Shown here in pieces: positions 21,718-21,966 of a stretch of DNA of 38,058 nt. The position numbers and the translations under genes are program-made. The stretch comes from a virus. A model generated the notes under the pieces. The model was given only the letters and a program-made list of their open reading frames with translations, was not told the origin of the DNA and did no database searches. Every line of letters starts with the position of its first letter. The first letter of the stretch is position 1. The stretch lies in IMG/VR virus record IMGVR_UViG_3300014202_000313, positions 1 to 38,058 of that record. One strand, written 5' to 3'.

Positions 21718-21966
21718 TTATCCGGAGCCTGATCCGGAGCCGTCGCCGTCGCCGCAACCGTAGCCGTCGCCGGAGCCGCAACCGTAGCCGTCGCCGCAAC
21801 CGTAGCCGTCGCCGCAACCGTAGCCGTAGCCGGAGCCAGAGCCGTAGCCGTAGCCGTAGCCGTAGCCGGAGCCAGAGCCGTAGCCGTAGCCGTAGCCGTA
21901 GCCGGAGCCAGAGCCGGAGCCGGAGCCGGAGCCGGAGCCGGAGCCGTTTTTTGTTATTGACCCCAT
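21718..21966 (-). CDS. Gly-X dipeptide-repeat protein (82 aa; X = Ser/Tyr/Cys/Asp)
   Basis: MGSITKN followed by strict G-X alternation to the C-terminus. The ATG and TAA bracket the repeat tract exactly. Synonymous variants (TCC/TCT/TCA Ser; GGC/GGT Gly) are silent only in this frame. Confidence 0.6.
   Translation of the reverse strand: MGSITKNGSGSGSGSGSGSGSGYGYGYGYGSGSGYGYGYGYGSGSGYGYGCGDGYGCGDGYGCGSGDGYGCGDGDGSGSGSG
21721..21945. repeat. GC-rich tandem hexamer array (GCC-NNN)n with higher-order 36-bp and 18-bp units
   Basis: On the plus strand every second triplet is gcc (with a few acc). Units are gccggagccagagccgtagccgtagccgtagccgtagcc x2 and gtcgccgcaaccgtagcc x3. All six frames are open. 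Confidence 0.9.

Follow-up and report, generated by a model that had tools for sequence, protein, structure and literature searches.

Several eukaryotic proteins of the Sm fold, namely SmD1, SmD3, SmB and LSm4, carry tails of Arg-Gly dipeptide repeats behind that fold, with about nine GR units in SmD1. In Escherichia coli, the acidic C-terminal domain (CTD) of Hfq is a nucleic acid mimic that autoregulates the Sm core (PMC5606850), and in Acinetobacter baumannii the number of GGFGGQ repeats in the Hfq tail affects RNA binding and autoregulation as well as fitness (PMC11617691; see also PMC5663733). Here we describe a phage locus in which a comparable core and tail may be encoded by two separate genes. 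It was found in the IMG/VR virus record IMGVR_UViG_3300014202_000313, whose positions 1 to 38,058 (38,058 nucleotides, nt) were analyzed as a whole and are called the window below. The element under study is a minus-strand open reading frame (ORF) for a protein of 82 amino acids (aa) in which glycine alternates with another residue (Gly-X), located directly behind a gene for a protein of the family DUF6948.

The Gly-X open reading frame

Translation of the Gly-X ORF (Table 1) gives MGSITKNGSGSGSGSGSGSGSGYGYGYGYGSGSGYGYGYGYGSGSGYGYGCGDGYGCGDGYGCGSGDGYGCGDGDGSGSGSG, followed by the stop codon. A head of 7 residues precedes 37 Gly-X pairs and a final Gly, and TAA comes immediately after this last residue. 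An earlier inspection of the DNA letters, referred to here as the sequence-only reading, had described the order of the blocks, from (GS)7 and (GY)4 to the closing (GS)3 G, and the bracketing of the repeat by ATG and TAA; both descriptions match the sequence and its translation. According to the codon counts, the X residues are 15 Ser, 13 Tyr, 5 Asp and 4 Cys. The protein is weakly acidic, with 5-6 Asp in 82 residues (∼7%) and a net charge of -0.05 per residue. It contains 13 GYG triplets, no Gln and no Ala, and no leader or signal peptide was found on it.

A single-sequence AlphaFold2 model of the protein had a mean predicted local distance difference test (pLDDT) score of 41.6, with strands only on both (GY)4 blocks. 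The low score is compatible with disorder and says nothing on assembly. A near-identity DNA search with positions 20500-23500 of the window against GenBank phages returned 0 matches. Exact look-up of the 82-aa protein found no record, so that the Gly-X frame was evidently not called by the gene caller on the source contig.

A conserved pair of overlapping genes

The sequence-only reading had suggested a look beside homologs of the 115-aa protein encoded upstream, which is the DUF6948 protein. This comparison was carried out, and it revealed a conserved pair of overlapping genes that had not been foreseen. When the DUF6948 protein was used as tblastn query against GenBank phages, 17 records were retrieved, and a Gly-X ORF was present after the DUF6948 homolog in every record opened. 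Isolated carriers include Pectobacterium phages Koroua and Ymer, Iodobacter phage phiPLPE, Ralstonia phage NK-7 and Vibrio phage IKEMa6-1. The Gly-X ORF of MW202898 (locus L001) begins MGAIRLDGVGDGSGSGYRDGDGHG..., and a second copy is also present in this phage; the Gly-X ORF of Chlorobiaceae phage CV-1-33 (MT192033, L002) begins MDGINYGYGDGDGSGDGSGYG.... DUF6948 proteins of the GenBank phages are 35-65% identical to the protein of the window, with 35-42% for the Chlorobiaceae phage.

In order to quantify the association, we collected 80 IMG/VR loci and 76 loci from GTDB genomes (all of them metagenome bins) with a DUF6948 alignment, and added the contigs of the closest relatives. DUF6948 was located in every locus by a hidden Markov model, and tracts were located by a simple score for alternating Gly. 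Genes were considered paired when a tract started between -60 and +150 nt from the DUF6948 stop codon, with at least 60 nt of downstream DNA required; nine loci were left unscored since the DUF6948 ORF had no stop codon or was followed by fewer than 60 nt. A Gly-X tract was present at the DUF6948 stop codon in 148 of 158 loci (∼94%). The ten exceptions fall into three groups: degenerate Gly-rich ORFs, Gly-X genes located slightly farther off, and one divergent DUF6948 subfamily, in which a 170-aa protein intervenes, with the Gly-X tract behind it or joined to it in a fusion. The loci add up to 1.0 Mb, and strong tracts were found 135 times at the DUF6948 stop codon and 30 times elsewhere. Among the latter, 28 were on the same strand, and most were tandem extra copies.

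The two genes overlap in a defined manner. In the window, the ATG of the Gly-X ORF consists of the last base of an Ile codon and the TG of the codon for the conserved Trp113 of DUF6948, and the TAA of DUF6948 falls within codons 4-5 of the Gly-X ORF. The stop/start overlap of 13 nt (Table 1) had the identical length in 109 loci, among which 81 different junction sequences occur. Throughout the family, the initiator codon combines the last base of an Ile or Val codon with the TG of the Trp113 codon, and the recurrent head M-[EGDAV]-x-[ILVM] arises because the Gly-X start overlaps this codon. Relative to DUF6948, the Gly-X frame was -1 in 131 of the 148 loci. The fixed overlap of stop and start makes translational coupling of DUF6948 and Gly-X probable, and the two proteins probably work together.

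A programmed -1 frameshift producing a DUF6948-Gly-X fusion was considered and rejected, as no slippery heptamer is common to the 81 junctions; moreover, a TGA located 15 nt before the ATG closes the -1 frame in the window. No third obligate partner gene was found. The other neighbors vary and include annealing proteins of the RecT, Sak4 and Erf types, SSB, anti-repressors and methyltransferases.

Some loci have 2-6 Gly-X genes in tandem, or Gly-X genes flanking DUF6948 on both sides (L004, L017, L018, L021, L022, L025, L039, L047, L062 and L125). Each tandem copy has its own short head, and some copies have a similar stop/start overlap, for example ATGGTTAA.

The coding frame

The window alone cannot fix the coding frame, because all three sense frames are open across the tract, as is one antisense frame; proof had to come from relatives. 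Openness of the ORF was dismissed as evidence, since the +1 frame was open too in 95 of 98 tracts, and the rule that X codons have the form NNY is by itself enough to keep the Gly-X frame open.

The ends of the tracts were more informative. Of the 85 complete tracts, 59 have a stop codon in the Gly-X frame immediately behind the last Gly, and 63 have it within a single codon. For the other two frames, the median distance from the end of the tract to a stop was 10-12 codons. The period-6 signal of GG dinucleotides was 0.98 within tracts and had dropped to 0.18 over the 60 nt behind the stop codon. The repeat ended at the stop codon in 91 of 94 cases, and the 3 cases in which it continued were tandem second Gly-X genes.

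Substitutions within the repeat point in the same direction. Hexamer units had G at position 1 in 96.5% and at position 2 in 98% of cases, and at position 3 they had C (62%), T (27%), A (7%) or G (4%). At position 6, C and T were about equally frequent, an exchange that is synonymous in the Gly-X frame and radical in the +1 frame. Gly-X periodicity was also retained with other codons, such as GGA throughout in L167, GGG and GGA in L001, and GGC-GAT/TAT in CV-1-33. Insertions of 3 nt, which generate GSSSG or a run of Ser residues, leave the Gly-X frame intact.

The sequence-only reading had favored the Gly-X frame on account of synonymous variants in the window. Its description of the +1 frame as an (RL)n repeat that changes to RLW at the TCT variants was confirmed, and so were the Ser codons TCC, TCT and TCA and the Gly codons GGC and GGT; two GGA codons for Gly had gone unmentioned. 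Its choice of frame is borne out by the relatives through the start overlap, the position of the stop codon, the codon changes and the fusions described below, which go beyond the argument from synonymous variants. It had also raised the prospect of relatives with frame-breaking indels or without the tract. Instead, the Gly-X frame was kept, about 94% of DUF6948 loci retained the tract, and it was the length that varied. We conclude from these sequence comparisons that the Gly-X ORF is a genuine protein-coding gene, with the Gly-X frame as the predicted translated one.

Composition, length and fusions of Gly-X proteins

Family statistics were based on 124 complete Gly-X proteins adjoining DUF6948. 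Their median length was 81 aa (range 16-258), so that the 82 aa of the window protein are typical. They consist of 38.5% Gly, 16.6% Ser, 10.6% Asp and 10.5% Tyr, and have a net charge of -0.10 per residue, with a positive net charge in 3 of the 124 proteins. The aromatic fraction was 0.13 on average and went down to 0, many members being poor in Tyr. Within tracts, X was Ser in 35%, Tyr in 24% and Asp in 21% of cases, and Phe, Asn, His, Cys and Glu accounted for 1-4.5% each. Aliphatic residues, Pro, Lys and Arg were rare at X, with Pro, Leu, Ile and Val nearly absent. The block of Cys, Asp and Tyr in the window protein, which the sequence-only reading had thought capable of metal binding or redox activity, did not prove to be a general feature. 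It is peculiar to the window phage: at least 3 Cys residues were found in 13 of the 124 proteins, and Cys accounts for only ∼1% of X residues.

Closely related phages differ in their Gly-X genes. Four contigs share an identical DUF6948 protein (P0002) that is 89% identical to the one of the window. Their Gly-X proteins comprise 64 aa in one case and 88 aa in another, and the remaining two are cut at a contig end and broken by a scaffold gap, respectively. The 64-aa and 88-aa genes are both in frame, with nearly identical flanks. The Gly-X proteins of these relatives are Asp-rich and free of Cys, unlike that of the window. The repeat number changes fast by in-frame gain and loss of units, and the composition also shifts quickly.

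Many IMG/VR contigs stop ∼100-500 nt past the DUF6948 match. Contigs ending in the tract or right after it include L007, L008, L011, L012, L019, L035 and L042, and further L044, L057, L060, L065, L069 and L071, among others; in the scaffold L087, a run of N lies inside the Gly-X tract (1455-1555). The hexamer repeat breaks short-read assemblies, and repeat lengths in such assemblies may therefore be unreliable.

Extensions at the C-terminus of DUF6948 were examined among the best 150 representatives of the family. P0197 (194 aa) consists of DUF6948 with an in-frame Gly-X tail of 69 aa, and P0156 (115 aa) of DUF6948 with a Gly-X tail of 24 aa. The P0156 fusion is not a sequencing error, because it is present on six contigs from different samples. 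Other extensions were a degenerate Gly/Asp tail, a (Gly-Met/Leu)n tail and an acidic tail ending in DDDGF. The last-named tail, found in P0177, is a non-repeat sequence (...DSEDDDGF) reminiscent of the SSB tip DDDIPF. In the divergent subfamily, the Gly-X tail is fused to the ∼170-aa intervening protein in L155 (3267-4010), whereas the two are separate ORFs in L159 (3345-3860 and 3853-4305). The intervening protein has the motif WH.ILTGSC..GRE.F and no Pfam match.

With the 82-aa protein as query, a homology search yielded 31 weak matches, which are small proteins with a similar tract beside unrelated domains, and which were for this reason rejected as orthologs. Combinations of a (Gly-[SYDF])n tract with unrelated non-repeat domains were seen in P0121, P0122, P0126, P0130, P0132, P0133, P0137 and P0140; one of these tract-bearing proteins comes from a Polyangiaceae bin, and one has a weakly TIGR02996-like N-terminus. 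Fused to DUF6948, to the 170-aa protein and to unrelated domains, the tract behaves as a portable tail module. It appears to be reusable beyond DUF6948 loci, with DUF6948 as its usual owner.

The DUF6948 protein

DUF6948 is a large family, with at least 7998 matches in 90%-identity clusters and 2458 clusters at 50% identity (E ≤ 1e-3, 1.84 billion representatives). Both PF22253 (DUF6948) and phrog_18306 are labelled 'unknown function'. An AlphaFold2 model of the window protein based on 62 sequences had a mean pLDDT of 90.6 and showed a five-stranded bent beta-barrel similar to Sm/LSm proteins, with strands at residues 25-30, 35-43, 47-55, 85-91 and 93-98 and additional helices at 65-71 and 101-109.

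When this model was compared to the PDB with Foldseek, the best 50 matches listed were all Sm/LSm or Sm-derived proteins, with E-values of ∼1e-2 and target-normalized template modeling scores of mostly 0.4-0.7. They include archaeal SmAPs, spliceosomal Sm proteins, Lsm1-7 and Lsm2-8, as well as the Sm-like metagenomic protein 3by7 and the designed TIP60 cage. Matches in BFVD were other DUF6948 proteins and phage proteins annotated as 'Sm-like domain'. A profile search of PDB sequences with DUF6948 found nothing relevant.

A C[KR]FPC motif is nearly invariant in the family. In the 62 aligned sequences Cys79 is invariant and Cys83 is present in at least 90%; the homolog of CV-1-33, which is more distant, lacks the Cys pair. 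DUF6948 proteins also share an ARR[IL]W.W motif and the invariant C-terminal Trp113.

Codon usage and the RNA level

In the window, Tandem Repeats Finder reported an array with a period of 6 (21734-21947, 35.7 copies) and another with a period of 36 (21722-21945). In the composition profile, GC content was 0.63-0.68 within the tract and ∼0.3-0.4 in the flanks. Gly is encoded in the window tract by GGC (32 of 38 codons), GGT (4) and GGA (2), and Ser by TCC (11), TCT (3) and TCA (1). For Tyr, Asp and Cys, exclusively TAC, GAC and TGC are used, while the genome prefers TAT and GAT.

The same tendencies were seen in 139 related loci. GGC accounted for 60-80% of Gly codons in tracts versus 21-42% in background ORFs, and GGA and GGG were avoided in tracts at every genome GC, versus 22-37% GGA in the background. 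TCY codons made up 85-93% of the Ser codons in tracts, as opposed to ∼35% in background ORFs, with avoidance of TCR and AGY. The ratio Asp/(Asp+Glu) was 0.93-0.99 in tracts and 0.46 in the background. The common X residues are Tyr (TAY) and the residues reached from it by a single step at codon position 1 or 2 (TCY, TTY, TGY, CAY, AAY and GAY).

A stable RNA structure in the window tract was ruled out (z = +1.24), as 181 of 200 shuffled sequences folded at least as well. The codon bias is most simply explained by repeat homogenization together with selection for the major tRNA-Gly(GCC), Gly codons making up ∼40-50% of the gene. The tracts that keep the Gly-X pattern with GGA or GGG argue for the protein as the primary constraint.

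Genomic context

The window approximates a complete phage genome of 38 kb, with genes for the small and large terminase subunits, a portal protein, an endolysin and a replication initiator. The Gly-X ORF belongs to a minus-strand operon running from 24.7 to 18.4 kb, in which no terminator-like sites were found on that strand. The operon encodes, in this order, a 132-aa protein, a Sak4-like annealing protein, an HNH endonuclease, an SSB-like protein, the 115-aa DUF6948 protein and the Gly-X protein, followed by two small ORFs, an AP2/HNH protein, a 166-aa protein and an SF2 helicase. The genes for the Sak4-like protein, the SSB-like protein and the helicase support the placement in a replication/recombination operon that had been proposed by the sequence-only reading. 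The 42-aa ORF directly downstream of the Gly-X gene is conserved among the closest relatives. Modification or export genes were found neither in the operon (by Pfam and PHROG) nor among the neighbors of related loci.

Two HNH-type endonuclease genes lie within the operon, one of them between the genes for the Sak4-like and SSB-like proteins, and both are likely mobile homing-endonuclease insertions. Outside the operon, the portal protein has a Gln-rich run close to its C-terminus, QHQQEQQQQQMQMQQQMQQ, which is encoded by a (CAGCAA)n repeat, and a tRNA-Asn (GTT) gene is located between the portal gene and downstream structural genes.

Table 1. Features of the window discussed in the text, with positions in the 38,058-nt stretch.
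Feature	Position	Strand	Description
Gly-X dipeptide-repeat ORF	21718..21966	minus	82 aa + TAA, MGSITKN(GX)37G; from the translation and the ORF list
Repeat tract proper	21721..21945	minus	75 codons of GGY-NNY hexamers; GC 0.72 versus genome GC 0.39
Stop/start overlap, 13 nt	21954..21966	minus	ATGGGGTCAATAA; shared by DUF6948 stop and Gly-X ATG
DUF6948 protein, 115 aa	21954..22301	minus	Pfam PF22253, E 3e-30
42-aa ORF directly 3' of Gly-X gene	21568..21696	minus	MDIEKLKQTIKSNLVSSGL...; also after the Gly-X gene in L087, L088, L090
SSB-like protein	22510..23052	minus	C-terminus ...GDIPF; phrog_9002, E 6.9e-8
Sak4-like single-strand annealing protein	23598..24272	minus	phrog_2872, E 1.9e-62
SF2 helicase, operon end	18418..20121	minus	phrog_16, E 6e-84; ResIII and Helicase_C
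HNH-type endonuclease	23084..23620	minus	HNH_3
HNH-type endonuclease	20609..21322	minus	AP2-domain/HNH
Portal gene	31829..34063	plus	
(CAGCAA)n repeat in portal gene	33656..33712	plus	
tRNA-Asn (GTT)	34713..34789	plus	

Possible function and alternatives

By analogy with Hfq, we tentatively propose that DUF6948 forms an oligomer acting on single-stranded nucleic acid and receives the Gly-X protein in trans as a disordered acidic-aromatic tail, a reading to which we give somewhat less than even credence. The Gly-X product would be an intrinsically disordered acidic-aromatic polymer and the low-complexity 'tail' of DUF6948, normally as a separate chain, and in a few phages covalently fused to DUF6948 or to another protein of the locus. 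As in the case of the Hfq CTD, the partner would act on nucleic acid: DUF6948 would bind single strands during the early recombination/replication programme, and the Gly-X chain would compete with or gate its binding surface, link DUF6948 particles, or both. In an extended Gly-X polymer, the X side chains face the same way at intervals of ∼7 Å, near the spacing of phosphates in a single strand. Spaced Asp carboxylates and Tyr rings would then be displayed on one face of the chain, which would suit a competitor or gate of a nucleic acid-binding surface. Composition and length would matter and the exact sequence would not, which would explain the free variation of the tracts.

A bolder version, which we regard as unlikely, is a two-part module widespread among phages, in which an Sm-fold ring and a Gly-X polymer of fast-changing length build a compartment resembling a ribonucleoprotein (RNP) granule or hydrogel, or a tunable nucleic acid-mimicking brush, for early replication and recombination. 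If true, this module would be a prokaryotic-viral counterpart of the eukaryotic Sm/LSm low-complexity condensates, and the Gly-X proteins would be the first dipeptide-repeat proteins to form a natural, AUG-initiated family under selection.

Several observations weigh against a tail in trans. Translation of the Gly-X gene, a complex of DUF6948 and Gly-X, and nucleic acid binding by DUF6948 are all predictions from sequence. The Foldseek E-values behind the Sm-like assignment are only ∼1e-2, and we speak of an Sm-like fold of the modeled DUF6948 protein and not of a member of the Sm family, because the LSM and Hfq models of Pfam do not match it (Pfam gives DUF6948 only, at E ≤ 0.01) and because the canonical Sm N-terminal helix is missing from the model. 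An acidic tip as in Hfq or SSB was ruled out, given that Asp, Tyr and Ser are evenly spread along the Gly-X proteins without a gradient. The window protein itself is weakly acidic and unusually rich in Cys. The synonymous bias toward GGY and TCY is present regardless of genome GC and could also be explained by a constraint at the RNA level. Finally, the neighbors other than DUF6948 are heterogeneous, and a role in recombination is therefore only contextual.

The sequence-only reading had put forward three hypothetical functions, namely a phage-made condensate or scaffold, a decoy or mimic, and a substrate for host modification. The main rival, though not mutually exclusive with a tail in trans, is a self-assembling scaffold, in which Tyr/Gly contacts would produce a condensate, a hydrogel or a cross-beta or silk-like polymer that concentrates replication and recombination factors, with DUF6948 as client or nucleator. 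The 13 GYG triplets of the window protein and the ∼13% aromatic residues of the family would fit such a scaffold, the strict period-2 Gly suits extended strands (which AlphaFold2 placed only on the (GY)4 blocks), the 2-6 tandem genes at some loci suggest a dosage effect, and eukaryotic Sm-like proteins with low-complexity tails are known to nucleate RNP granules. However, ∼10% Asp and a charge of -0.1 per residue work against homotypic assembly in the absence of counter-ions, and many Gly-X proteins are poor in Tyr, the aromatic fraction ranging down to 0. We consider the scaffold unlikely as well. An anti-defence decoy or mimic, an acidic Ser/Tyr/Asp polymer that sequesters or inhibits a host factor (for example a nuclease, kinase, protease or sensor) and varies in an arms race, seems improbable to us. 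Such a role would agree with a position in an early operon, with the net acidic charge, with anti-repressors, methyltransferases and similar accessory genes in the neighborhoods, and with the sharp variation relative to DUF6948, as Gly-X differed in length alone beside identical DUF6948 proteins, and in length and X composition at 89% DUF6948 identity. Yet the window protein has only 7% Asp, a charge density far below that of known DNA mimics, slippage of the hexamer repeat suffices for the variability, and the near-obligate pairing with DUF6948 and the fusions would be left unexplained.

The remaining explanations place the function elsewhere than in a tail or do without one. The (GGYNNY)n RNA might be the functional element, for example as a binding array for the Sm-like protein encoded upstream, with the peptide secondary or incidental. 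Sm and Hfq rings do bind short repeated RNA motifs, GGR, TCR and AGY are avoided in all genome-GC classes, and the NNY rule automatically leaves the frame open. But start and stop codons bracket the tract exactly, Gly-X is kept with GGA or GGG codons, Ser, Tyr and Asp far exceed Phe, Asn, His and Cys within the NNY codons, the fusions to DUF6948 are in frame, the RNA is unstructured, and selection for the major tRNA-Gly(GCC) fits the codon bias too; we hold an RNA-level element to be quite improbable. Still far less credible is a functionless slippage product, an expandable hexanucleotide repeat that happens to be open. The unstable repeat number, the assemblies that break within the tract and the many contigs ending there would be expected of it, but not a tract at the same position in ∼94% of loci, with a conserved start overlap and an exact stop, in phages of very diverse origin and across a family, DUF6948, that comprises 2458 clusters at 50% identity. 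Equally hard to credit is an exported Gly-rich antimicrobial, that is, the precursor of a ribosomally synthesized and post-translationally modified peptide (RiPP) of the microcin B17 or GrrA kind, or a dedicated Cys/Asp metal-binding peptide. The Gly/Ser/Cys composition does recall the microcin B17 precursor, a distant tract-bearing protein had a sub-threshold match (E 0.1) to TIGR04260 (GrrA), and the GC-GD-GY block of the window protein could be read as a metal site; against this, the 7-residue head contains no leader or signal peptide, no modification or export genes were found in the operon or among the neighbors of related loci, and Cys is rare across the Gly-X family.

Annotation and implications

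Gly-X genes are routinely missed or mistreated, and annotation pipelines need a rule for such tracts. In CV-1-33, gene_25 (L002, 3327-3584) is annotated in the +1 frame as MAMAMALAM.... In phiPLPE (EU876853, L084), the Gly-X ORF between gp84 and gp83 (∼1170-1420) has no coding sequence (CDS) call, and in MW202898 the second Gly-X ORF (L001, 4572-4804) is covered by a CDS in another frame, which is probably wrong. The Gly-X copy of NK-7 (PP919442, L085, 2153-2566) is named 'fibroin heavy chain-like protein', a name that reflects composition only.

What had been one odd ORF is now an observation at the level of a family, as thousands of phages, including cultured ones, encode a near-perfect dipeptide-repeat protein. 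The tract can be used as a strain-level length marker. If the pair works as proposed, it would represent a new type of phage module for nucleic acid handling and a natural, evolvable bacterial system for the study of low-complexity disorder, mimicry and condensation. The culturable carrier phages make the Gly-X/DUF6948 pair directly testable.

Comparison with known systems

Scans of the Gly-X proteins against Pfam, PHROG and NCBIfam gave no family above threshold, and none for the window protein. The sequence-only reading had not recognized any family, and indeed none of the three collections has a model for Gly-X proteins. Sub-threshold matches of tract-bearing proteins (TrAA12, SGP, KRTAP, ser_rich_anae_1, phrog_10432 and TIGR04260) were compositional. 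A full-text literature search on DUF6948, on the peptide motifs, on 'fibroin heavy chain-like' phage proteins and on phage pairs of Sm-like and glycine-rich proteins found nothing on the Gly-X family.

Membership in several known groups could be ruled out. Collagen-like (Gly-X-Y)n proteins were excluded since Gly recurs with a period of 2 residues (6 nt) and not 3, microcin B17 and related thiazole/oxazole-modified microcins (TOMM) or GrrA-type RiPPs since there is no leader and no adjacent modification or export gene was found, and DNA mimics of the Ocr/ArdA type since only ∼7% of the residues are acidic and the protein is predicted to be disordered. Silk fibroin was excluded because the window protein has no Ala, no signal peptide and only 82 aa. 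In the heavy chain of Bombyx mori fibroin (GAGAGS/GAGAGY), every second residue is likewise Gly and the residues between are small or aromatic, Ser and Tyr among them, but X is Ala at about two thirds of positions, and the protein is huge, secreted and equipped with terminal domains.

Other likenesses concern composition or the origin of the repeat. Dense [G/S]Y[G/S] triplets and predicted disorder are shared with FUS-type low-complexity domains, a resemblance that is compositional only, as the phage tract has no Gln, a strict period-2 Gly and 82 aa, belongs to an Asp-rich (∼10%) family of prokaryotic-viral origin and is not homologous to FUS. High-Gly/Tyr keratin-associated proteins and bacterial sulfur-globule proteins have a similar low-complexity composition of Gly and Tyr (with Cys and Ser); they are, however, structural extracellular or envelope proteins without strict alternation, and the Pfam matches to them stayed under the curated cut-offs. 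The poly-GA, poly-GP and poly-GR products of C9orf72 likewise result from a hexanucleotide repeat translated into Gly-X dipeptide polymers. Their source is a pathological expansion read by repeat-associated non-AUG translation, whereas the phage gene is a canonical ATG-to-stop ORF conserved by selection.

The closest parallels are the tails of Sm-fold proteins. The eukaryotic SmD1, SmD3, SmB and LSm4 tails are basic, methylated and read by the Tudor domain of SMN, in contrast to the acidic/aromatic and separately encoded phage tracts, and there is no homology between them. Hfq shares with the phage pair an Sm-fold core with a disordered, Gly-rich, acidic low-complexity tail, and P0197 and P0156 even carry the tract as a true C-terminal extension. 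Unlike in Hfq, the phage tail is usually a separate polypeptide encoded in the -1 frame with a 13-nt overlap with the core gene, the tract is a strict dipeptide repeat, and DUF6948, a predicted binder, has no sequence similarity to Hfq. Together, these comparisons place the Gly-X proteins as a large phage family outside any described family or system, to which FUS and the Sm tails are analogies.

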